Assembly (NCBI GenBank): GCA_036170655.1
Contig: JAVHPP010000066.1
Span: 1 to 14,453 of the forward strand
Origin: Candidatus Zixiibacteriota bacterium
Lineage (GTDB): Bacteria; Zixibacteria; MSB-5A5; WJJR01
DNA: 14,453 bases
Direction of reading: 5' to 3'
Positions 1 to 14,413 of the stretch are shown here, one piece after another. Every line of letters begins with the position of its first letter. Within the stretch, counting starts at the first letter, position 1. The notes beneath the pieces were generated by a model. The model searched no databases. It had not been told where the DNA came from and was given only the letters and a program-made list of their open reading frames with translations. A program made the translations under genes and the position numbers.

Positions 1-1485
<1,485 letters not shown>

Positions 1486-3663
1486 TCAAATGATAAGATC
1501 CTGCACATTCCTTTGCAGCGGGACATCCGCACAGAGGCCGAGATCTTTCCTGTAGAGCGTTTCATCTGTGAGTACTGGGAACATCCCGGCCTTCAGTTTG
1601 ATACTCCCGATAGAGAGAAGTGTGTTCCACTCTCCGGGATGTATGGAGACAGTGTACTTCTGAAGCAATCGCGAAAGGGACGTGGGCTTTTCACAATAGT
1701 CCAGTGTCTTTATGAGCCTTCTCGCATCATCGTCGAAGGGTATGACAACCGGCTTCATCTCGTCCTTGATGAACCGGAACTTCTCAGCCACGGTCTTGAA
1801 GGGGAAATCACCATTCTGACAACCCGCGTGGAGCATAGCGAGTATGCCCTCGTCGTCGAGAGCATCGCCCTTTGTCCAGTAGTAGAGTTTGAAGTAATCC
1901 TCGATCGCCGCGAGCGAGAGAATGTCCTGCGGATGCATTCGTATCACCGACTCAGCAGCCTGAGCGGTCTGCCTGAAGTGACCAGCGGGGATCGCTGCTT
2001 CTGGTGCGAACACGAAAACTTGTCCCATTTTCAGCCGACCTTCTCTATTACACCTTCCGGCTGCCTGAGCGATAGAATCGATTCCTCCGACTGACCGGAA
2101 GACGACCGGGAAATCGATGTCTACGCCGGCTTCGACCAACTGCGTACTTATCACCCTGCAAGCCCGCCCGGCTTGAAGTCTGTTGCGAATCTCCGCGAGC
2201 GTCAAGCTTCGATGGACGGGACACATGAGGGCACTCAAATGAAAAGCGTCCTCGCTGTCGCCCAGGGACTGGAAAAGGGCCCTCGCGTGTTTCCTGGTGT
2301 TGACAATGCACAGAACTTGCGAGTAGCTATTTAGACGGTTCGCGAGTTCCGTGTCGTGCACCTGCGGCAGAACTGTGACTTCGGTCCTCTTCAGCGCCGT
2401 CGCAAGTGCATCGGGGTTATCGATGATCTCTGTCACCCCCTCCAAGCCATGCGGGAAATCATCGCGTATCTGCACGGCAGGTTGCGTCGCGCTGCAGAGG
2501 ACTATTGACGCTCGATACATGCCTGCGAGTTCTCTCAACGCCTCCAGGCAGGGCAGAAGGAAAGGGGCGGGAAGAGTCTGGACTTCATCCAGTATGATGA
2601 CACTCCCGGTGACGTTGTGGAGCTTGCGGCACTGACTAGACCTGCTGGCGAAGAGCGACTCGAAGAATTGCACGTTCGTCGTAACGATTATAGGGGCATC
2701 CCAGTTCTCAGCCGCTAATCTGGAACGGTGGTCTTCGTTGTCAGGCTCGAAGTTGCAATGGTGTTCAAGCACGGCATCATCGCCGAGCATTGCACGAAAG
2801 ACAGTTGCGTTCTGTTCGATGATGCTTGTGTACGGGATAACATAGATGACCCTCTTGAGGCCATGCTTCCTCGCATGACTTAGCGCAAACGCCATCGAGG
2901 ACAGAGTCTTGCCGCCGCCAGTTGGCACGGTGAGAGAGAATAGCCCCATGTCTCCTTGGCTTGCCCTCAAGCACTGATTGAGGATGAGTTCCCGCTCACG
3001 GTTGACCGGCGAAGTTGGGGCAGTCTTCCTCATCTCGCCAAGTTTCTCAAAGAAGACTACCTCAAGCTCAGTGAGCGTCCTGTATCCTTGTCGCCGCTGC
3101 CCCCTCTGCGAATCCATGAATACTTCGGTATCCAGGAAGTCTGCGTCCACCAAACAAGAATAGAGCATGCGAATAAACAGGCTGAATTGCATTCCAGCTC
3201 GATCCTGTGCTGGCACAAGCGGTAAGGTCGGCGACGGTTGATCCAATATGTGCCCGGGACAATTGCTGTAATCAGGAATTATCTTTTCCAGGCGACTTCG
3301 TAGGCAGGAATCGGCTGAACTGCCATCGGGGAGACCACCGTGGTGCCCGGCGATAACGTAAGCGAGGACCTTGCCCGCATCGCTAAGGGTCTTGGCTGCG
3401 TACTGTGCTCCGGCAGTCGAGTGGTCTACCCTCCCGACGTATTCGATGTGAGCGTCTTCGCCACCTGCCGCACATATCTTTTGTTGAAATTTGGGAGAGT
3501 ACTTTCCAATATCGTGCCACAGCCCTGCGAGGGCTGCCCAGTCCTGCCCGTCGAATGTGCTCGCGAACTGTCGTGCCAGTTCCGACACCGACCTGAGATG
3601 TTTCTCCAAGTCATGCCACTGGTCGCGCGGGCGTTCCGGATGTGAGTGTGCGTAGTACGGCAC
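1486..3663 (-). CDS. cas3: Cas3 with fused HD nuclease and SF2 helicase, about 725 aa
   Basis: N-terminal YYAHS, LEKHL, WHDIGK, DHSTAG, IAGHHGGLPD, LVDADFLDT (HD domain). Helicase motifs VPTGGGKT, ILDEVQ, SATQP, QAAGRCNREG. Likely start is GTG at 3663 (VPYYAHS) preceded by GGGGA, not the 3726 start in the ORF track. Confidence 0.97.
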   Translation of the reverse strand: MPYYAHSHPERPRDQWHDLEKHLRSVSELARQFASTFDGQDWAALAGLWHDIGKYSPKFQQKICAAGGEDAHIEYVGRVDHSTAGAQYAAKTLSDAGKVLAYVIAGHHGGLPDGSSADSCLRSRLEKIIPDYSNCPGHILDQPSPTLPLVPAQDRAGMQFSLFIRMLYSCLVDADFLDTEVFMDSQRGQRRQGYRTLTELEVVFFEKLGEMRKTAPTSPVNRERELILNQCLRASQGDMGLFSLTVPTGGGKTLSSMAFALSHARKHGLKRVIYVIPYTSIIEQNATVFRAMLGDDAVLEHHCNFEPDNEDHRSRLAAENWDAPIIVTTNVQFFESLFASRSSQCRKLHNVTGSVIILDEVQTLPAPFLLPCLEALRELAGMYRASIVLCSATQPAVQIRDDFPHGLEGVTEIIDNPDALATALKRTEVTVLPQVHDTELANRLNSYSQVLCIVNTRKHARALFQSLGDSEDAFHLSALMCPVHRSLTLAEIRNRLQAGRACRVISTQLVEAGVDIDFPVVFRSVGGIDSIAQAAGRCNREGRLKMGQVFVFAPEAAIPAGHFRQTAQAAESVIRMHPQDILSLAAIEDYFKLYYWTKGDALDDEGILAMLHAGCQNGDFPFKTVAEKFRFIKDEMKPVVIPFDDDARRLIKTLDYCEKPTSLSRLLQKYTVSIHPGEWNTLLSIGSIKLKAGMFPVLTDETLYRKDLGLCADVPLQRNVQDLII

Positions 3664-3739
3664 AGGTATATCCCCGCGGAATCGTCCAGATGAAGCCCCT
3701 ATGAGGGCACGACGACGCCGAAACACAATTCGACAATGC

Positions 3740-4208: not shown

Positions 4209-5300
4209 TCAGCTCAGTTCCAGCATCCGCTCCAGCGCGATCCTGGCATCGCGGGCGATGGCTGGGTCCACGTGGATTTCGTTCTTGTGGCCGAGGTTTT
4301 CGAGGCAGTCGGCCAGATCGCCGAGAGTCGTGCGGAACATGTTGACACACAGCGGGCAGTTCTGCCCGGAAAGCTCAATAACGGTCTTATCGGGGTGCTC
4401 GTCGGCCAGCCGGGACGTGAGGTTGATTTCCGTGCCGATGGCGATGATCGAGCCCGGTGGCTGTTCGGCCACATACCGCGCAATGAACGCGGTCGAGCCG
4501 ACGGCGTCTGCGGCGTTCACCGTGGCTTCCATGCATTCGGGATGCACGACAATTTTGATTCCGGGGTAGTCCTTGCGCGCCTGCTGGATGTGCGCGACCG
4601 TGAAATTGGTGTGGACGTGGCAGAACCCCTTCCAGAGGATGACCCTGGCTTTTCGGAACGGTTCCGGGTCCGCCGGGGGCTTCATGGGATCGAAGAGTAC
4701 ACGCTCGTCACGGGGGATGCGGAGGCGGTTAGCCGTGTTGGTTCCCAAGTGCTCGTCGGGGAAAAAGAAGACCTTCTCTCCACGCGCGAACGCCCAGCGG
4801 AAGGCTTTCTCGGCATTCGATGACGTGCAGATCACCCCGCCACGGGCGCCGCAGAACGCCTTCAGCGATGCCGCCGAATTCATGTAGGAAATGGGAATGA
4901 TCTTCGCTGTGTCGAGATGCTGCCCCAGCCACTCCCAGGCGTCCGCCACCTGATCGTCGTCGGCCATGTCGGCCATCGGGCAGCCCGCGCGCAGGTTGGG
5001 CAGATACACGCGCTGCCCGGGACGGCAGAGGATGCGCGCCGATTCGGCCATGAAGTGCACGCCGCAAAAGACGATGTGCTCCGCCTTCTCCTGCTGCGCC
5101 GCCATTTTCGACAGGTAGTACGAGTCGCCGACGAAATTGCCGAAGGGCACGACTTCCTTGCGCTGATAATGATGTGCCAGGATGACGAGCTTGTCACCCC
5201 ACTGGCCGATCAATCCTCGGATGCGCGTTTTCAGCGTCTGATCGGCCGCGGATTCAGGACGGTCACAGGTGGTCTTTGGCTCGATGGTCAGGGTACTCAT
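4209..5300 (-). CDS. nadA: Quinolinate synthase NadA ([4Fe-4S] enzyme of de novo NAD synthesis), 363 aa
   Basis: Motifs ILAHHYQ, GDS, FCGVHFMAES, AGCPMADM, YMNS, CTSSNA, FFPDEHLG, GFCHVH, VHPEC, GST, GTE, CVNM. The three cluster-ligand Cys are present. GGAG RBS upstream. Confidence 0.97.
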   Translation of the reverse strand: MSTLTIEPKTTCDRPESAADQTLKTRIRGLIGQWGDKLVILAHHYQRKEVVPFGNFVGDSYYLSKMAAQQEKAEHIVFCGVHFMAESARILCRPGQRVYLPNLRAGCPMADMADDDQVADAWEWLGQHLDTAKIIPISYMNSAASLKAFCGARGGVICTSSNAEKAFRWAFARGEKVFFFPDEHLGTNTANRLRIPRDERVLFDPMKPPADPEPFRKARVILWKGFCHVHTNFTVAHIQQARKDYPGIKIVVHPECMEATVNAADAVGSTAFIARYVAEQPPGSIIAIGTEINLTSRLADEHPDKTVIELSGQNCPLCVNMFRTTLGDLADCLENLGHKNEIHVDPAIARDARIALERMLELS

Positions 5301-5440
5301 GTGTAACTCCAGCCAGTCCGGATTCTGTCTCCATTCTCTTATACGTAACCGTAGGACCTATGCGACACGTTCCCAGGCTGGATTCGTGGCATTTTTGATC
5401 GCGTTTCTCTGTCCGTGTACGATTCGCCCCTGCGGGCCGA

Positions 5441-5836
5441 TCACTTCGTATCTCTTGTCTTCCAATCGCCGATGGCGGCCTTGGTCGCCTCTTGGGCGAG
5501 GACCGAGCAGTGAAGTTTGTGTTCCGGCAGGCCGCCCAGTGCCTCGGCGACATCGGTGTTCTTAATCAGCGCGGCATCGTCCAATGTCCGGCCGATCAGC
5601 ATCTCGGTGAGCTTCGAGGACGAGGCGATCGCGGCGCCACAGCCATAGGTCTTGAACTTCGCATCGACAATGCGCTGGCCGTCGATGCGCAGATACAGCT
5701 TCAGCAGGTCGCCGCAGTCGGAGTTGCGGACCAGGCCAATGCACGACGGGTTCTCCATGTCGCCCACGTTGCGTGGGTTCTGGAAATGATCCATCACGGT
5801 GGCGTTGTAACCGAAGTTTTCGTCGTCGAGGGGCAT
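5441..5836 (-). CDS. iscU: IscU/NifU-N-type Fe-S cluster scaffold, about 131 aa
   Basis: Motifs VMDHFQNPRNVG, DCGD, KFKTYGCGAAIASSS, LGGLPEHKLHCS. ATG at 5836 preferred over the 5872 start on family length; start uncertain. Confidence 0.93.
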   Translation of the reverse strand: MPLDDENFGYNATVMDHFQNPRNVGDMENPSCIGLVRNSDCGDLLKLYLRIDGQRIVDAKFKTYGCGAAIASSSKLTEMLIGRTLDDAALIKNTDVAEALGGLPEHKLHCSVLAQEATKAAIGDWKTRDTK

Positions 5837-5912
5837 GGGTTGTTTCTCTGGGCCAGATCGCTCCCGCGGCACTGATACGAGAGCAAATATCTGGACGGTA
5901 GCTCTTGGTTCA

Positions 5913-5945
5913 GAAAAAGAGGGCAGGTTTCAGACCTGCCCCTGC
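5913..5945 (-). terminator. REP-like hairpin with U-tract; probable intrinsic terminator of the nuo operon
   Basis: Minus strand GCAG-GGGCAGGT-CTGAA-ACCTGCCC-TCTTTTT: a perfect 8 bp stem (5921-5928 with 5934-5941) followed by a T-run, about 35 bp after the nuoN stop. Confidence 0.7.
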
Positions 5946-5980: not shown

Positions 5981-7450
5981 CTACGTACCCGGCATGAACA
6001 ACTGCGCCGCCGCCTTCACCCAGTCAACGAACGGGCCGGGGAAAATGCCGAGCACCAGGACACCGAGAGCGGAGATGCCCAGCGCGATGACCAATGTCCG
6101 GGGGATTGCGATTCCGCCCTCCGGCTGGTCGAGCGGGAAGTACATCTTCCGGATCACGGTTGCATAGTAGTACACGGCGACCACCGAGGTGGCGACACCG
6201 ACAATCACGAGCCAGAGATACCCTTTTTCAATCGCCGCCAGAAAGACATAATACTTCCCGAGGAAACCCGCTGTCGGGGGAATGCCCGCCAGTGACAACA
6301 GAAACAGGGAGAAGAACGCCGCCAAGACAGGAGAGCGGCGCGCCAGCGCCGAGTAGTCGGAAATCTTCTCGGACCCTGTCTGTTCAGCGAACGCGATCAC
6401 ACAGATGAAGGCGCCCATGTTGGCGAAAAGATATGCCATCATGTAGTAGGAGATTGCTGTAGTGCCCCACGTGTCTGTCGCAACCGCCCCGACCAGAATG
6501 TACCCGACCTGTGCGACCGATGAGTAGGCGAGCATCCGTTTGATGTTGGATTGAACGATCGCCGTCGTGTTGCCAATGATCATGGCCAGCGCCGCCAACA
6601 CAGCGATCGCTTGGATCCAGATCATTTGCGATGATTCCAGTCCGCCGAAGAACACGCGGAGGAAAGCCGCCAGTCCGGCGGCCTTGGATGCCACCGAGAT
6701 GAATGCCGTGACGGGCGTCGGCGCCCCTTCGTACACATCAGGCGCCCACATGTGAAACGGCGCGAGCGCGAGTTTGAATCCGAATCCGGCCACAAGCAGC
6801 AGCAACGCCAGCGTCACGCCGGCGGGGAAAGCGCCGCTTCCCACATATAGTTTCTGGATTCCCTCGGACAGACCGGCCAACTGCGTGGTGCCGGTCATGC
6901 CGTAGAGCAGGGCCACACCATAGAGGAGCACGGCGGAGGAGATGGCGCCCAGAATCACGTACTTCAATCCCGCCTCGGCGGACTGCCGGTTTGTCTTGTG
7001 GTAAGTGGCGAGAACAGCGAGCGTGACGGTCGAGAGTTCCAGCGAGATGTAAAGAGTCAGGAGCTCGGTGGCCGAAACCATGAGCATCATCCCGATCGCG
7101 GAGAACAGAATCATGCCATAATACTCGCCCCGGTGCGCCTGCAGGCGGGAGACCGTGCCGACGGACGCCGCCACGGTCAAGAATACACCGGCGAGGATGA
7201 TTTCCTTGAAGACGACGCCCAGTCGGTCGAAAATAAATGTCCCACCGAACGCCGTTCCGTCGCCGGTCGCCGCCACCCAGATCGCTGTGGCGACGGTCCC
7301 GATCAATGTCCAGATGGCAAAGGCGCCCGCCCGGCCTTCGCTTTTGCCGAAGACGGCTGCGGCCATAATCCCACAGGCCCACACAAGCAGGAAGCATTCG
7401 GGGAGGATAGCGCCCCAGTCGGCGTACAAGCTGGACGGATCAACATTCAC
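5981..7450 (-). CDS. nuoN: NADH-quinone oxidoreductase subunit N, 489 aa
   Basis: Polytopic membrane protein. Motifs ILPE, GEYY, LYISLELS, SAEAGLKYVILGA, GFKLALAPFHMWAPDVYEGAPTPV, KRMLAYSSVAQVGY, SLAGIPPTAGFLGK. GTG start. Confidence 0.96.
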   Translation of the reverse strand: MNVDPSSLYADWGAILPECFLLVWACGIMAAAVFGKSEGRAGAFAIWTLIGTVATAIWVAATGDGTAFGGTFIFDRLGVVFKEIILAGVFLTVAASVGTVSRLQAHRGEYYGMILFSAIGMMLMVSATELLTLYISLELSTVTLAVLATYHKTNRQSAEAGLKYVILGAISSAVLLYGVALLYGMTGTTQLAGLSEGIQKLYVGSGAFPAGVTLALLLLVAGFGFKLALAPFHMWAPDVYEGAPTPVTAFISVASKAAGLAAFLRVFFGGLESSQMIWIQAIAVLAALAMIIGNTTAIVQSNIKRMLAYSSVAQVGYILVGAVATDTWGTTAISYYMMAYLFANMGAFICVIAFAEQTGSEKISDYSALARRSPVLAAFFSLFLLSLAGIPPTAGFLGKYYVFLAAIEKGYLWLVIVGVATSVVAVYYYATVIRKMYFPLDQPEGGIAIPRTLVIALGISALGVLVLGIFPGPFVDWVKAAAQLFMPGT

Positions 7451-7499: not shown

Positions 7500-8405
7500 C
7501 TACGCATCCAAGTACGCTTTCCATGAAGCGAAATATATCTCAGCGCCATCGACAAAACCGCCATGCGCAGGTTGCCAGTCCAGCAGCCGTACTGCCTTCC
7601 GTGCATCAACATGCTGATCGAGCGCCAGACACTCGGCAAAGCCCCCCATTGTCTTGGCGGCTTCGGTCACGGGTATGAACTGGATTTTGTCGGTATAGCC
7701 GGTGGCGCGAGCCACGGCTTGGACCATGGCGCCCACAGTGGACCGGGACCGGTCGGTGATATTGAATACTTCGCCGGCCATTCCGCATTCGGCGGCTCTC
7801 ACGTAAGCGGCGGCCAGATCGTCGACATGTACCATGGCCCAGTGATTTGAGCCGTCCCCGATGGCACGCAGCGATTTGTCCTTGTGGGCGGCGGCAAACC
7901 ATGTCGCCGTCAGCCCTCCCTGTTTTCCATAGACACAGCCGGGACGGATGACGAGGCCTTTGACGTGAGTGGCACGGAGCACCATCTGTTCATGGTCGGG
8001 CCGCCACTTGACCATGGTGGCTGGCGCAGGTGATGCAGTCTCATCAGCCATGTGCGTGCCGGTGTTGCCGTAAACCCAGACCCCGCTTGTGTAGATCACG
8101 GTCTTCGGCTGGGGGCCTTTCCGGCCGGTGTCGAGCAGCACCTCGATGGTTTTCCGGTCCAGCGCCGGAAGGTCACTCTGGTAGTCGGCCGCAACATGAA
8201 TCAGGACCGAGCATGACTCGGCGACGGCACGGTAGCTCTCGGGCGACTGCATGTTGCCGATGACAGGGTAGATTTCCTGCTGGGTGAGCGACCGGGCCTT
8301 GGCTTCGTTGCGCACCAGACCCCAGACATCATGTCCGGCGCGGCGCAACGCCGAGGCGACATTGAACCCGATATATCCGGTGGCTCCTGTGACGAATACC
8401 TTCAT
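7500..8405 (-). CDS. NAD(P)-dependent epimerase/dehydratase-family protein (atypical SDR), 301 aa
   Basis: Rossmann motif VFVTGATGYIG, GLVR, VIYTSGVWVYG, IRPGCVYG, VHVDDLAAAY. No YxxxK at the expected position (MVKWR). Strong RBS GGGAGG. Confidence 0.92.
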   Translation of the reverse strand: MKVFVTGATGYIGFNVASALRRAGHDVWGLVRNEAKARSLTQQEIYPVIGNMQSPESYRAVAESCSVLIHVAADYQSDLPALDRKTIEVLLDTGRKGPQPKTVIYTSGVWVYGNTGTHMADETASPAPATMVKWRPDHEQMVLRATHVKGLVIRPGCVYGKQGGLTATWFAAAHKDKSLRAIGDGSNHWAMVHVDDLAAAYVRAAECGMAGEVFNITDRSRSTVGAMVQAVARATGYTDKIQFIPVTEAAKTMGGFAECLALDQHVDARKAVRLLDWQPAHGGFVDGAEIYFASWKAYLDA

Positions 8406-8454: not shown

Positions 8455-9933
8455 CTATGATCCGATCAAGGCGACCAGATTGACGATCGTTGCCTGAATC
8501 ATGTTGGACAAGAGTGACGGATATACGCCGATGGCGATCATGAGAATAGCCAGCGGCGCGACGGCGAAGATTTCACGCGCGTTGATTTCGGTCAGCCCCT
8601 CGGTGTGGCCCGCGACCGGACCTAAGAACATGCGCTGGACCATGCGCAGGAAATAGGCGGCGGTCAGAAGCACACCGACGACAGACAACGCCACAGTCAC
8701 TGGGTAGTACGGAAACGCTCCCAGGAAGACCATGAACTCGCTGACAAATCCGGACAGCCCCGGAAGCCCCAGTGATCCGAGAACAAACAACACCATGATG
8801 CCGGAGTAGACGGGTACCTTGATCCACATCCCGCCGAAAGCCCCAATCTCCCGTGTATGGGCGCGGTCATAAACCACTCCGACCAGAGCGAACAGCGCCC
8901 CGGTGATCAGCCCATGGGAGACCATCTGGAACATGCATCCGGAGATGGCCGCCACAGAGCCGAATGCCGAGAGGCCCAGAAGGCAGTATCCCATGTGCGA
9001 CACCGACGAGTAGGCCACGAGTTTCTTCAGATCGGTCTGAGCCATGCAGACCAGCGCGCCGTAGATGATTCCCGCCATGCCGAGGATTGCCATGGGAAAG
9101 GCGTAGAACTTCGTGCCCACTGGAAACATGGGAAGCGAAATCCGCAACAGGCCGTATGTTCCCATCTTCAGCAGGATTCCGGCCAGCAGGACCGATACCG
9201 CCGTCGGCGCTTCGACATGCGCGTCGGGCAGCCACGTGTGGAACGGCAACGTCGGGATCTTGACGGCAAAGCCGATGAAGAAAAAGGCAAAGGCAAACAA
9301 TTGGAAGCCGCGTGTCATCTGCGGTGCACGCTGGATCTGCTCGATGATCGACAACGAATGGGGCGCGGAGTTGAAGTACAGCGCCAGAATGCCCACCAGC
9401 ATGAAGATCGAGCCAAAGAGCGTGTAGAGGAAGAACTTCATCGCCGCGTACTCTTTGCGCGGGCCGCCCCAGATGCCGATCAAGAAGTACATCGGCACGA
9501 GCATGACCTCCCAGAAGACGTAGAAGAGAAAGAGGTCGAGGGCCGCAAACACGCCCATCATCGCGGTCTCCAAGAGCAGGAAAAAGGCGAAGTACTCCTT
9601 CACGCGCTTGGTGATGTTGAACGACACCAGCACCGCCAGGAAGGAAAGGAGTGCGGTCAATGCCAGCATCGGCACCGAGATCCCGTCGGCGCCCAGATGG
9701 TAGTTGGCATTGAGGCCGGGAATCCACGAGGCCAGCTCGACGAACTGGAACTGGGCGGTCGAGGAATCATACTGAGCCACGAGGACGGCCGCGAGAACCA
9801 GCGGCATCAGCGACGCAACAAAAGCGACGCCACGGATCAGGCGATGGTTGTCCTTGGGGATCAGCAGGGCTACCACGGCGCCGATCAGGGGAAGGAAGAT
9901 CATCCACGAGAGGATTCCGGTCATATGTGTCAT
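8455..9933 (-). CDS. nuoM: NADH-quinone oxidoreductase subunit M, 492 aa
   Basis: Motifs LGADGIS, DLFLFYVFWEVMLVPMYFLIGIWG, AAMKFFLYT, FAVKIP, HTWLPDAHVEAPT, LLKMGTYG, KKLVAYSSVSHMG, MVSHG, GLPGLSGFVSEF. Confidence 0.97.
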   Translation of the reverse strand: MTHMTGILSWMIFLPLIGAVVALLIPKDNHRLIRGVAFVASLMPLVLAAVLVAQYDSSTAQFQFVELASWIPGLNANYHLGADGISVPMLALTALLSFLAVLVSFNITKRVKEYFAFFLLLETAMMGVFAALDLFLFYVFWEVMLVPMYFLIGIWGGPRKEYAAMKFFLYTLFGSIFMLVGILALYFNSAPHSLSIIEQIQRAPQMTRGFQLFAFAFFFIGFAVKIPTLPFHTWLPDAHVEAPTAVSVLLAGILLKMGTYGLLRISLPMFPVGTKFYAFPMAILGMAGIIYGALVCMAQTDLKKLVAYSSVSHMGYCLLGLSAFGSVAAISGCMFQMVSHGLITGALFALVGVVYDRAHTREIGAFGGMWIKVPVYSGIMVLFVLGSLGLPGLSGFVSEFMVFLGAFPYYPVTVALSVVGVLLTAAYFLRMVQRMFLGPVAGHTEGLTEINAREIFAVAPLAILMIAIGVYPSLLSNMIQATIVNLVALIGS

Positions 9934-9977
9934 CCCATCCTTTGGTCAGAGAGCTCCCGATGGAGTCGGCGACCAGC

Positions 9978-11909
9978 TCATTGCAAAATCCACAAGATCA
10001 CCAGGGCGGCAAAGACCACGAACGCGTAATTCTGCAGGCTGCCGGTCTGCAGATATCGCACGGTGCCGCCAAAGCCGCGCGTGAGCCAGCCGACACCATT
10101 GACCGCGCCGTCAACAAATGTTTCATCAAACCAGCGCTGGGACTTTCCCCACAGGATGCCGAAGCGTCCGGCCGCGTTCACTACGCCATCGATGATGTGC
10201 TGGTCGAACCAAAACCAGCCACGACAGACCGCGTAGTATGGCTGGATGAACAAGAGCGTATAGGCGTCGTCCACGTAGTACTTGTTCAAGAGGGTATTGT
10301 AAATCCCCGGCAGGGAGGCGGCCAGACGGTCGGGATTGATGCGCCGCCGGTAGTACATGAGGTAGGCCAACGCCATCCCGGATAGGCCCACCAGCAGCGA
10401 AATTGCCGCCAGACCATAGTGGAATTCGGCGTGATGCGGTTCTTCGTGGAAGACCACGGCGGAAAATCCGTGATGCAACCAGGGCAGACCGATCCATCCC
10501 GACACAACCGACAGGAAGGCCAGGAAAATCAGGGGGTAAGTCATCACCTTCGGCGATTCGTGCGCGTGGTCGAACTTGTGTTGGTCGCGCGGCGTTCCGG
10601 TAAACGTCAGGAAGTAGAGCCGGAACATATAGAATGCTGTCATGAAGGCGACGATCAGCGACAGCACGGTGAAAGCCGGATGGCCAAGTGTGGCCGCGAC
10701 GATCTCGTCCTTCGACCAGAATCCTGACAGCGGGAAGATGCCCGCGATGGCCAGCGCCGCGATCAAGAATGTGACGGAGGTTGTCTTCATCTTGGAATGC
10801 AGCCCGCCCATCTCACGGATATCGTTGGTGTGCACCGCATGGATGACCGATCCGGCGCCGAGGAACAAGAGCGACTTGAAGAAAGCGTGGGTCATGAGAT
10901 GAAACGTGCCGGCCGTGAACCCCTGCAGGCCGAGCGCCATGATCATGTAACCGAGCTGGGAGACGGTCGAGTAGGCCAGGACACGTTTGATATCATTCTG
11001 CACCAGGCCGATGGAGGCCGCCATCAGCGAAGTGATGATACCGATCCACGCCACGAACATGCCCGCGGTCTCGGCGGAGATGAAGATGGTCAGCGAACGC
11101 GCTACCAGATAGACACCGGCCACGACCATGGTTGCCGCATGAATCAAAGCCGAGACCGGCGTCGGACCCTCCATGGCATCGGGCAGCCACACGTGCAACG
11201 GGAACTGCGCGGATTTGCCGATGGCGCCGCCAAAGAGGAAGATCGCGGCGGTGGTCAGCATCGCGCCGCCCAAGGCGCCGCTCTTCACCGCGCCGAAGAC
11301 ACCCTCGAAGGTCAGCGACCCGCAACCGGCATAGAGCATGAGCATGCCGATGATGAAACCCAGATCGCCCAGACGTGTGGTGATGAACGCCTTTTTGCCC
11401 GCGTCCGACGCCGACTGCTTCTCAAACCAGAAACCGATCAGCAGATACGATGCAAGACCGACCAGTTCCCAAGCGACAAACATGAGGACAAAATTGTCGG
11501 CCAGAACCAGGGTCAGCATGGCCATGGTGAAGAGCGACAGATACGCATAGTAACGCGAGTACCGGGTGTCGCCGTGCATGTATCCCAGCGAGTAGATATG
11601 CACCATGAGCGCGACCGTCGTGACGACAATCAGCATCATCGCGGTCAGGCCGTCGACCAAGATCCCCATGGGCAGATGCATCGACGCGCCCAGATCCAGC
11701 CACTCGAGCGAGAATCGCTGCGCTTCGGGGTTGCCCCAAACGGCGAAAGCCATTGCCCACGCGTAGAGGAAGGATAGCGAGACGGCGGCGATCGACAGAC
11801 CAGCGGACAAAGCCCGGCGCCGGTGCGTGAACAGCATGATCGCTGCCATCGAGACAAGCGGGAAGACGGGTATCAGCCAGGCGTGGGATTGCATCGTGGT
11901 ATCAGCCAT
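9978..11909 (-). CDS. nuoL: NADH-quinone oxidoreductase subunit L with an elongated lateral helix, 643 aa
   Basis: Motifs VHIYSLGYM, WELVGLASYLLIGFW, KAFITTRLGD, GKSAQFPLHVWLPDAMEGPTPVSALIHAATMV, KRVLAYSTVSQLG, HLMTHAFFK, SGFWSKDEI, LQTGSLQNY. Confidence 0.97.
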   Translation of the reverse strand: MADTTMQSHAWLIPVFPLVSMAAIMLFTHRRRALSAGLSIAAVSLSFLYAWAMAFAVWGNPEAQRFSLEWLDLGASMHLPMGILVDGLTAMMLIVVTTVALMVHIYSLGYMHGDTRYSRYYAYLSLFTMAMLTLVLADNFVLMFVAWELVGLASYLLIGFWFEKQSASDAGKKAFITTRLGDLGFIIGMLMLYAGCGSLTFEGVFGAVKSGALGGAMLTTAAIFLFGGAIGKSAQFPLHVWLPDAMEGPTPVSALIHAATMVVAGVYLVARSLTIFISAETAGMFVAWIGIITSLMAASIGLVQNDIKRVLAYSTVSQLGYMIMALGLQGFTAGTFHLMTHAFFKSLLFLGAGSVIHAVHTNDIREMGGLHSKMKTTSVTFLIAALAIAGIFPLSGFWSKDEIVAATLGHPAFTVLSLIVAFMTAFYMFRLYFLTFTGTPRDQHKFDHAHESPKVMTYPLIFLAFLSVVSGWIGLPWLHHGFSAVVFHEEPHHAEFHYGLAAISLLVGLSGMALAYLMYYRRRINPDRLAASLPGIYNTLLNKYYVDDAYTLLFIQPYYAVCRGWFWFDQHIIDGVVNAAGRFGILWGKSQRWFDETFVDGAVNGVGWLTRGFGGTVRYLQTGSLQNYAFVVFAALVILWILQ

Positions 11910-12009: not shown

Positions 12010-12324
12010 TCACCATTTCATGAAATTGACCTGATCCACATTGATGCCCCGGTGGTGCTGGTAGATGAGCAGCACGATCGCCAGCGCGACCGTTGCCTCA
12101 GCGGCGGCCACGGCGATCGTAAAGATGGCCACTACCTGCCCGGTCACGGTCGCCGGCGTGACGTACCGTGCGAACGCCACGAGCGTAACATTGACCGCGT
12201 TGAACATCAGTTCAACAGACATCAGGACGCCAATGGCATTCCGGCGTGTGAGCATACCGTAAACGCCGACGCAGAACACGACCGCTGCGAGAGTCAGATA
12301 ATGTGAGAGTCCGATTTCCATCAT
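12010..12324 (-). CDS. nuoK: NADH-quinone oxidoreductase subunit K
   Basis: Three hydrophobic segments; motifs RRNAI, SVELMFNA, GQV, AVAAAEATVALA. Start overlaps the nuoJ stop. Confidence 0.96.
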   Translation of the reverse strand: MMEIGLSHYLTLAAVVFCVGVYGMLTRRNAIGVLMSVELMFNAVNVTLVAFARYVTPATVTGQVVAIFTIAVAAAEATVALAIVLLIYQHHRGINVDQVNFMKW

Positions 12325-12878
12325 CTGGACGCTTCCTGAGTCGCGCCCGGCAGTGGTGTCTTGGGCATCGTGGGTTCCCGGCGTTGCGGATCTTTCTTGG
12401 CTATGACCACGGCGCCGATCAGCGCGCCGAGCAGCAGGACCGACACGATCTCAAAAGGCAGCACGAACTTCGTCAGCAAAAGCCGTCCCAGTGTCCGTCC
12501 CGCGCCCTCCGGCATCGGCGCATCTGAGATCGGAAAAGGTGTCTGCCAGAGTGAATAGACGATGATCGCCAGCAATCCGAGAGAAACGACCAGACCGGTG
12601 ACGGTCTGTTCGTTGGTCTGGCGGATGGATGTGTCGGCGATACGCGCGGTCAGCATGATCGCAAAGATCATCAGCATCGACACCGCGCCGACATAGATGA
12701 GCACCTGGGCGGCTGCCAGGAACGGCGCCTGCAAGAGCACATAGAGTCCCGCCACGCCGAATAATGCCAGGATCAGATAGATCGCCGAGTGGAAGATGTT
12801 CTTCGATGTCACCACGAAGATCGACGCGGCAATCGTCAGGAAAGCCAGGGCGTAGAAGGCGAGAGACAGTGCGCTCAT
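12321..12878 (-). CDS. nuoJ: NADH-quinone oxidoreductase subunit J, 185 aa
   Basis: Motifs NIFHSA, APFLAAAQVLIYVGAV, LPFEIVSVLLLGALIGAVVIA. Starts 4 bp after the nuoH stop. Confidence 0.95.
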   Translation of the reverse strand: MSALSLAFYALAFLTIAASIFVVTSKNIFHSAIYLILALFGVAGLYVLLQAPFLAAAQVLIYVGAVSMLMIFAIMLTARIADTSIRQTNEQTVTGLVVSLGLLAIIVYSLWQTPFPISDAPMPEGAGRTLGRLLLTKFVLPFEIVSVLLLGALIGAVVIAKKDPQRREPTMPKTPLPGATQEASR

Positions 12879-12882
12879 CAGT

Positions 12883-13926
12883 TCACGGCTCGAAAATGTA
12901 GATCCCCAGCCCGGTCAGCACGATGTTGATGAAGGCCAGCGGCAAGAGGAATTTCCAGGCAAATCCCATCAATTGATCGACCCGCAACCGGGGGTAGGTC
13001 CACCGAAACCACATCAGCACGAACACACCGGTCAATGTCTTGACCATGAACCAGGCCCAAGACGGCAGGAAGGGCCCGTTCCAGCCGCCGAAGAACAGAG
13101 TCGTCGCCACCGCCGAGACGGTAAACATATTCAAGAACTCCGCCAGAAAGAACATGGCGAACTTCATCCCGGAGTATTCGGTGACAAATCCGGCCACGAG
13201 TTCCGAGTCGGCTTCGGGCAGATCGAAGGGCGTCCGGTTGCATTCGGCCGTCGCGGCGACCAGATAGATGAGAAAACCCACCGGCTGGCGCCAGATGTAC
13301 CATTGATAGAACTTCTGCTGCTGTCCGATGATCTCGACCATCGACAGCGTCTGAGTCAGCATGACCACGCCGATGACCGCCAGCGCCATCGGCACTTCGT
13401 ACGACACCACCTGGGCCGCCGAGCGGAATCCGCCCAGCAGTGCGTACTTGTTGTTCGAAGACCATCCGGCCATCAACAGACCGATGACCGTGAAGGTCGT
13501 GATCGACAGGATGTACAGGATGCCGATGTTGAGATCGCGGACCACCAACCCCTTGCCGAATGGAACAGTCACATACACCGCTAGCGCGGCGACAAAGGTC
13601 ACGATCGGCGCCCAGAAGTAGATCCCCCGGTCGACAGCGGCAGGCGTGATATCTTCTTTCTGCAGAAGCTTGAGCGCGTCGGCGATGGTCTGGATCGAGC
13701 CATGCCAGCCGACACGCATCGGTCCGAGACGCATCTGGATGTGCGCTGAGATCTTCCGTTCCCACCAGACCAGGAAGAGGACAACGATCGCGACAAACGC
13801 GATGATGACCAGCGCGGCCACGACGAGCTGAGCGAGAATGACCCAAGGCGGACCCAAGCCCAATGCGCCAATGCCGGCTTCGATGCCATCGCCGATCCAC
13901 TTGACCAGTTTATCGAGTTCCAGCAT
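12883..13926 (-). CDS. nuoH: NADH-quinone oxidoreductase subunit H, 347 aa
   Basis: Motifs ERKISAHIQMRLGP, ADALKLLQKED, GWSSNNKYALLGGFRSAAQVVSYE, AECNRTPFDLPEADSELVAGFVTEYSG, RWTYPRLRVDQLM. Confidence 0.97.
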   Translation of the reverse strand: MLELDKLVKWIGDGIEAGIGALGLGPPWVILAQLVVAALVIIAFVAIVVLFLVWWERKISAHIQMRLGPMRVGWHGSIQTIADALKLLQKEDITPAAVDRGIYFWAPIVTFVAALAVYVTVPFGKGLVVRDLNIGILYILSITTFTVIGLLMAGWSSNNKYALLGGFRSAAQVVSYEVPMALAVIGVVMLTQTLSMVEIIGQQQKFYQWYIWRQPVGFLIYLVAATAECNRTPFDLPEADSELVAGFVTEYSGMKFAMFFLAEFLNMFTVSAVATTLFFGGWNGPFLPSWAWFMVKTLTGVFVLMWFRWTYPRLRVDQLMGFAWKFLLPLAFINIVLTGLGIYIFEP

Positions 13927-13981: not shown

Positions 13982-14341
13982 TCAATACCAGCGCAGCACA
14001 CCCTTCCGCCAGGCGTAGAAAAGGCCAAAGAGCAGAATGGCGACAAAGACCAGCATTTCGACAAAGGCAAACAACCCCAGGGACTGGTAGACAATCGCCC
14101 ACGGGAACAGGAAGATGGCTTCCACATCGAAGACCACGAAGATCAACGCAAAGATGTAGAAACGGACGTTGAACTGGATCCACGCGGGGCCGAAGGGTGT
14201 CTCGCCGCATTCATACGTGCTCAACTTGACGGGATTGGGGGCCGATGGCCGGATCAGGCGGGCCAGAAGAAAATTGAACAGGACAAACCCGACGCCCAAG
14301 CCGATGAAGACCGCCACTGCTGCGAAGTCGGAAACCACCAT
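13982..14341 (-). CDS. nuoA: NADH-quinone oxidoreductase subunit A, 119 aa
   Basis: Motifs KLSTYECGETP, FYIFALIFVVFDVEAIFLFPWA, YAWRKGVLRW. Start moved from 14386 to the ATG at 14341, which follows GGAGGTTG. Confidence 0.96.
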   Translation of the reverse strand: MVVSDFAAVAVFIGLGVGFVLFNFLLARLIRPSAPNPVKLSTYECGETPFGPAWIQFNVRFYIFALIFVVFDVEAIFLFPWAIVYQSLGLFAFVEMLVFVAILLFGLFYAWRKGVLRWY

Positions 14342-14413
14342 CAACCTCCGGCTGCCATCCCGAAAACAGCGCCCTTGCACGGTCAACCCTGATACAAGGA
14401 CACCGAGGTGGCG

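Follow-up and report, generated by a model that had tools for sequence, protein, structure and literature searches.

The window, by which we mean the whole stretch of 14,453 nt analysed here, is a complete contig whose minus strand carries the membrane-arm genes of a complex I: nuoA (13982..14386 for the listed ORF; the true start may lie later, given that relatives have 117-118 aa), nuoH (12883..13926), nuoJ (12321..12878), nuoK (12010..12324), nuoL (9978..11909, encoding 643 aa with a long lateral helix), nuoM (8455..9933) and, after a gene for an NAD-dependent epimerase/SDR protein (7500..8405), nuoN (5981..7450). The nuoM, the only one in the operon as a sequence-only reading of this DNA had stated, lies between nuoL and nuoN; it is preceded by a Shine-Dalgarno-like site (9934..9943) with a likely ATG start at 9924, and its product retains E142, K166, K225, H232, K256, Y308 and E399. 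A terminator-like hairpin 3' of nuoN (5920..5942, minus strand) is a consensus match only. The epimerase/SDR gene is likely a local insertion; it is absent from that place in the family relatives that were fetched. NuoL, NuoM and NuoN all exceed their own NCBIfam cut-offs, and we rejected the arm of an Mrp antiporter or Hyf hydrogenase because the Mrp and Hyf models score below cut-off for these proteins, with the exception of a hydrogenase-4 D model (305 against 430 for NuoL). Also on the minus strand, an iscU/nifU-like scaffold gene and nadA lie 3' of the operon (4209-5872), as they do in the close relatives L187 and L190, and positions 1-3726 hold cas3 (1486-3726), cas5 (820-1485) and another cas-like ORF truncated at the contig end, presumably of type I-C.

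The lateral helix of NuoL (residues 543-621, 10047..10283, minus strand) contains a tandem duplication of 26 residues, in which unit 1 (W567-R592, nt 10211-10134) and unit 2 (W593-R618, nt 10133-10056) are offset by 78 nt, with identity at 10 of 26 residues and 37 of 78 bases; the QTGxxQxY motif and the last transmembrane helix follow (9981..10049). YVD begins at residue 545 and QTG at residue 621, a span of 79 as compared with 53-55 in short-helix relatives (n=24 operons). The sequence-only reading had reported both the duplication at W567 and W593 and a span of 79 against some 53 in ordinary NuoL, and self-comparison, homolog alignment and the measured spans bear it out. Because T. elongatus NdhF1 and Thermus Nqo12 can be aligned to one unit or the other and never to both, and because the alignment of barley NdhF opens a 26-column gap at the duplication, the extra 26 residues are a net insertion relative to these solved homologs. 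In the AlphaFold2 model of NuoL (mean pLDDT 90.2), the helix runs continuously for 79 residues, from 543 to 621, and does not loop out; pLDDT is 76-90 per 10-residue block over 541-610 and 69 at 611-620, and AlphaFold2 is prone to model segments of this kind as helix. The hydrophobic period is best described by 97 degrees among nine angles tried, and 26 residues therefore make seven turns. An assembly artefact or chance is ruled out by the identical long helix in 64 of the 80 closest genomic loci.

Those 80 loci, found by whole-protein similarity, comprise 11 more with a short helix and five that are unreadable, and none of the 75 readable ones has an intermediate span. The closest relatives of the window locus are labelled Zixibacteria, and every one of the 55 long-helix relatives in which the operon is visible from nuoL to nuoN has one nuoM. 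A whole-genome search found the long helix intact in 87 of 101 Zixibacteria genomes, and frameshifted in one more, and in 50 of 121 Omnitrophota genomes. Among Armatimonadota, 35 of 101 genomes matched, and all 20 operons fetched have one nuoM, with nuoN visible in 18; the long helix also occurs in a group that includes a Planctomycetota-labelled protein. In all, 103 long-helix operons with a single nuoM were measured, from Zixibacteria, Omnitrophota, Armatimonadota and others. The combination is conserved in several bacterial phyla; it is old and common, and the window locus is an ordinary member of its lineage rather than a rarity. In Manganitrophaceae, a NuoL insertion together with the single-nuoM state is already in print and was left open in the available text of Yu et al. 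2022 (PMC9040806). The earlier reading had named, as observations that would speak against it, a duplication common in verified single-nuoM complexes and one that loops out in a three-module arm. The duplication is indeed common in single-nuoM operons, but no loop-out is seen with AlphaFold2 and none of the carriers is a verified three-pump enzyme. At one locus (L192, G229:C3:410000-428000), a long-helix operon has fragmented nuoH, nuoL and nuoM, through decay or assembly error. Neither a plasmid search nor the ESM Atlas contributed further evidence.

We suggest, with a probability of roughly 0.6, that the single nuoM gene supplies two NuoM subunits to an L-M-M-N arm with four antiporter modules, a reading built on sequence comparison and supported, to begin with, by the predicted helix being unbroken over residues 543-621. 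The window complex is not a 2M complex by gene content, and it likely works like one. The sequence-only reading had called the arm built for four modules while encoding three; one nuoM is indeed encoded and sequence evidence supports the rest, with the four modules remaining predicted. Among its options was one gene's NuoM or NuoN used twice, which for NuoM is the best-supported of them and for NuoN is not.

Another of its options was a second nuoM supplied in trans. The genome (100% complete, 0.27% contamination) holds eight antiporter-like genes, namely L-M-N of the window, a second L-M-N set whose helix is short, and two genes resembling hyfB and hyfF; no orphan nuoM was found across it, and the other nuoM sits in a full second operon. 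The window operon lacks NuoEFG. Contig C151 of the same genome carries the second complex (A-B-C-D-E-F-G-H) and then a separate B-C-I-D set, which, paired by elimination, likely partners the window membrane arm; no overlap was found between C151 and the window contig. Separation of the A-H-J-K-L-M-N membrane arm from B-C-I-D is a family trait. At G000:C151:55-12137, B-C-I-D stands behind the NuoEFG-type operon together with a 202-aa ORF that matches no Pfam family, and G000:C63:13834-21875 (L003) encodes a Hyf-like membrane-bound complex, preceded by an ORF that by eye resembles a PTS-type regulator.

A fourth module borrowed in this way would be the NuoM of the second complex I or a HyfF/MrpD-like protein. 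Like the window genome, all 87 long-helix Zixibacteria genomes have at least two nuoM-like matches, the second coming from the other complex wherever it was fetched, and many long-helix carriers have two further antiporter-like genes as well; in two genomes with three nuoM-like matches (G196 and G205), the long-helix operons are still single-M. Against this stand the 50 long-helix Omnitrophota, of which 26 show one nuoM-like match genome-wide, 21 a second elsewhere and three an ambiguous result, and two genomes (G006 and G014) whose only antiporter-like genes are L, M and N; the Omnitrophota carriers are MAGs, for which 90% completeness was requested and values were not displayed. That more than half of these carriers show one nuoM-like gene supports double use of NuoM, and supply in trans is no general answer. 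Two different partners should, moreover, make the two units diverge, as they do in true 2M operons (below), and we regard a module in trans as improbable.

In Paracoccus, D648 coordinates H239 and Y315 of NuoM and stabilises the complex without coupling pumping, and the lateral helix is structural rather than catalytic (PMC9802314, in the part available). Unit 1 residue D569 aligns with D648 of Paracoccus Nqo12, and its counterpart in the duplicate is D595. D569, D574, V577, N578, D595, D600 and V603 do not vary among the 92 long-helix NuoL sequences of an alignment (A3) preselected for spans of 79-80, so that its absence of indels is partly built in; the docking residues of both units are kept across phyla at NuoL identities of ~45-60%. 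D574 of unit 1 likely pairs with K166 of NuoM. The charged residues of NuoM (TM5 Glu, TM7 Lys, TM8 Lys, TM12 Glu) are kept too, E142, K225 and K256 in 91 of 91 sequences and E399 being listed as invariant. Contacts of D563 and E587 in E. coli found no confirmation in a literature search and carry no weight here. Two copies of NuoM are supported because the doubled unit holds the NuoM-binding Asp and holds it invariantly in both copies; the Asp residues alone cannot separate M from N, because NuoN of the window also carries a Lys, a His and a Tyr at the corresponding motifs.

Operons that do encode two M subunits were compared with these. Thirty two-nuoM operons were recovered in a metagenome scan, and the 27 that could be measured all have a long helix, with spans of 79-83. 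The median BLOSUM62 score between unit 1 and unit 2 is 43 in the 103 single-M long operons and -3 in the 27 two-M operons, after exclusion of five known duplicates and of rows lacking an anchor, and with two spans set by hand. Similarly, two or more occurrences of a D-x4/5-DG-x-VN-type motif are found in 101 of the 103 single-M long operons and in none of the 27 two-M operons; its pattern matches only 9 of 24 short helices and is not universal. Units that stay alike where there is one M and diverge where there are two support an arm with two identical NuoM subunits. So does the covariation of the unit-1 Asp with the first-M Lys, in that Lys166 of the first M is present in 20 of 20 two-M operons exactly when unit 1 retains its second Asp (eight with both, 12 with neither). 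Read by eye and from cases clumped by kinship, this pattern ties unit 1 to the first M of 2M operons.

The same comparison bears on a three-pump enzyme with a longer brace, in which unit 1 would sit on NuoM and unit 2 on NuoN, and the last helix would reach ~39 A further to strap NuoJ, NuoK, NuoA and NuoH. Such a brace needs no new subunit interface and fits one gene per subunit, and the Lys, His and Tyr of NuoN would serve it. In single-M operons, however, it is unit 2 and not unit 1 that most resembles the lone, M-docking unit of short helices (49.6 versus 29.3), and the QxGxxQxY motif at the C-terminus does not change its G, second Q or Y between short, long and 2M forms. Had the helix simply been displaced onto NuoN, the reverse would be expected, so that both observations support L-M-M-N; the 27 measured 2M operons, furthermore, spend a similar length on a fourth subunit. 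We consider the longer brace unlikely.

A relic or neutral duplication would leave an ordinary L-M-N arm whose extra 26 residues loop out or remain from a 2M ancestor. A helix that is structural rather than catalytic would tolerate this more easily, and short-helix members do occur inside the long clade. Docking residues invariant in both copies at such NuoL divergence argue against it, as does the lack of intermediate spans among the 75 readable loci. The units also keep separate identities, likeness across clades being 49.7 and 52.6 within units and 37.5 between them. Recent gene conversion, rejected as the cause of their likeness for this reason, would leave more than the slight excess of identical codons observed (409 versus 370 expected, of 835). 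These patterns point to one old duplication maintained by selection. The earlier suggestion of a former 2M complex, taken as recent decay, finds no support, with both units invariant at key residues and length fixed across phyla; a relic in the broader sense we judge rather unlikely, a shade more so than the longer brace.

Helix length changes in steps. Operon spans fall at 53-55, 79-83 and 105-107, and 150 representatives include spans of 131 and 157 as well, in Actinomycetota where labelled. The four- or five-unit C-termini are those of P0044 and P0046 (span 157) and of P0073 and P0094 (span 131); P0046 is labelled Actinomycetota, and the P0087 cluster, with P0087 labelled Coriobacteriia, is three-unit. 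Three operons with a three-unit helix and one nuoM were found, and in the three-unit operons at L204:12387-14222 and L205:9953-11848 the single nuoM has an N-terminal extension of ~80 residues with hydrophobic segments and, by eye, a strong ribosome-binding site (-10.0 each). Shifts by steps of 26, together with a long helix in all measured two-M operons, support two NuoM copies. The steps fit a ruler, and unequal crossing-over between repeats would give the same; indeed, tandem expansion alone can yield multiples of 26, since the units of P0044 are near-identical. Helices of four or five units would imply very long arms, which counts against our reading, and we know of no stop to M-M stacking except helix length. 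Three Omnitrophota operons with the same M type and a short or degraded helix are nested in the long clade, so that the extra unit is dispensable there.

A subunit needed twice is predicted, under proportional synthesis, to have stronger initiation, and how far Shine-Dalgarno strength determines output is a matter of dispute (PMC10542608, in the part available). In the window operon, the Shine-Dalgarno energy is -6.7 kcal/mol for nuoM, -5.0 for nuoL and +0.2 for nuoN. Among long-helix operons, the nuoM site exceeds the mean of nuoL and nuoN in 45 of 48 from Zixibacteria, in 16 of 20 from Omnitrophota and in 12 of 15 from Armatimonadota, versus 13 of 21 short and 4 of 15 2M operons. Of 26 pairs of a long-helix and a short-helix operon from one genome, four were skipped; in 20 of the 22 scored, nuoM outdoes nuoL and nuoN by a wider margin in the long-helix member. 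As a control, in all 20 Zixibacteria genomes compared, ATP synthase subunits needed in several copies have stronger sites than those needed once. Taken as support for L-M-M-N, the signal holds over nuoL and nuoN and not over nuoH and nuoK: in Zixibacteria, nuoM is stronger than single-copy nuoH in 16 cases and weaker in 19, and against nuoK the figures are 21 and 19, a blurring by strong nuoH and nuoK sites that suits the longer brace. In one of three gap classes, with 11-30 nt between L and M, long and short operons do not differ significantly (p=0.38), and with only three phylogenetically independent pairs the independent-pairs test has no power. We regard the translation signal for a doubled M as suggestive. 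It also bears on an L-M-N-N arm, with four modules and NuoN used twice, whose geometry is acceptable insofar as the helix suits any antiporter subunit and NuoN has similar docking residues. Of 63 operons, however, 55 have a weaker site at nuoN than at nuoM, the part of the helix that is doubled docks M and is not the QTG segment, and the four-pump operons found double M; L-M-N-N is, in our estimate, the least probable of the arrangements weighed here, and very improbable.

An IQ-TREE phylogeny of 54 NuoM sequences unites the first M of 2M operons with the single Ms from long operons in one clade (97/96), within which the first Ms are nested (100/99), and the second M of 2M operons joins the short-helix Ms (100/100); monophyly of the single Ms without the first M was rejected (p=0.024) for a group named after the first tree. 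Nesting of the first M among long-helix single Ms supports one M gene used twice. A tree of the NuoL core, with the helix left out, likewise nests 2M forms among long single-M forms (96/95), and the NuoN tree is poorly resolved. The L and first M of ten metagenomic 2M operons nest in the wider long-helix group, with no 2M member in the window's own clade, and no Nitrospira or Thaumarchaeota 2M sequences were identified in this 2M sample. In the sampled lineage, true 2M operons likely arose from a single-M long-helix state. Ancient 2M ancestry is possible, with repeated loss of one M: a deep split separates the two M types, as would follow from an old duplication and differential loss, and 2M and single-M NuoL are interleaved in the tree, points that also favour a relic. 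The order in which one gene is used twice and a second gene comes later is favoured because the units are twin-like. A survey of loci L210-L280, with short-helix loci such as L060, L067, L072, L193 and L200, showed that all 43 long-operon Ms and all 20 first Ms from 2M operons have the TM7 Lys (NuoM 225), usually held essential, and that this Lys is replaced by Leu in 20 of 20 second Ms and by Leu or Ile in 19 of 25 short-helix Ms, which leaves a large NuoM lineage without it.

The arm that we propose would be laid out along the helix as along a ruler. Each 26-residue unit, of seven turns and ~39 A, would span one antiporter subunit, unit 1 lying on the first NuoM and unit 2 on a second, identical NuoM, and the QTG motif and last helix would reach NuoN as usual; the B-C-I-D set on C151 would complete the complex. 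By analogy with the 2M hypothesis, as put forward in the available parts of PMC6606698 and PMC9040806, the enzyme would link ferredoxin-type carriers to quinone and move one additional proton in each cycle. A second, different nuoM would later take over one of the two slots and so produce a true 2M operon. Extending this, the lateral helix of NuoL may be a molecular ruler that sets NuoM copy number, with four-pump enzymes made from ordinary-looking 11-gene operons, five-pump enzymes from three-unit helices and two-gene 2M complexes derived from the homo-oligomeric state, a proposal to which we would give slightly less than even odds. If it is true, the carriers are most Zixibacteria and many Omnitrophota, Armatimonadota, Firestonebacteria and Planctomycetota, and proton stoichiometry is tuned by the gain or loss of 78 nucleotides. 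Genome annotation takes the pump number of complex I from gene count, and if a single nuoM serves two positions, such annotation understates what a widespread complex I lineage can yield in energy and achieve in reverse electron transport. Helix doubling followed by a second gene would also be a simple path to 2M complexes, and the clade's own natural variants, with one, two or three units, make stepwise module addition, with a proton per module, directly testable.

Chadwick, Hemp, Fischer and Orphan, writing in 2018 (ISME J 12:2668), reportedly described 2M complex I as having a NuoL helix insertion of ~26 aa and a fourth antiporter-like subunit. The window complex resembles 2M complex I in its lateral helix, longer by ~26 residues, in an operon without NuoEFG and in a predicted fourth antiporter module (PMC9040806 and PMC6606698, in the parts available), and the first M and NuoL of the fetched 2M operons nest among its relatives. 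Unlike 2M complex I, its operon has no second nuoM, its helix units stay alike rather than diverging, and its M keeps the TM7 Lys that is absent from the second M in 20 of 20 sampled 2M operons. Also comparable are Complex_I_1 and Complex_I_2 of Manganitrophaceae, where the NuoL insertion is present outside the complex that has the additional pump genes; these complexes, according to the available text of Yu et al. 2022 (PMC9040806), either have room for extra pumps already or are passing through an evolutionary transition. By that description, Manganitrophaceae genomes contain further nuoM genes, unlike the window genome with no orphan nuoM, and the same text, as far as it is available, holds no proposal of one gene used twice, no cross-phylum range and no length ladder. 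Our literature search found no proposal of one nuoM used twice; Chadwick 2018 and Fig. S2 of Yu 2022, which lay outside it, may treat single-nuoM cases. In subunit set, finally, the window complex matches the 11-subunit NuoEFG-less complex I and cyanobacterial NDH-1, with ABCDHIJKLMN in one operon in relatives and AHJKLMN plus the separate B-C-I-D of C151 in the window genome. None of the solved homologs aligned (NdhF1, Thermus, Paracoccus, Mycobacterium and barley) has a doubled helix. NdhF1 is the top PDB match of the window NuoL both by sequence and by fold, and, unlike that protein, it and the other four homologs carry one unit.
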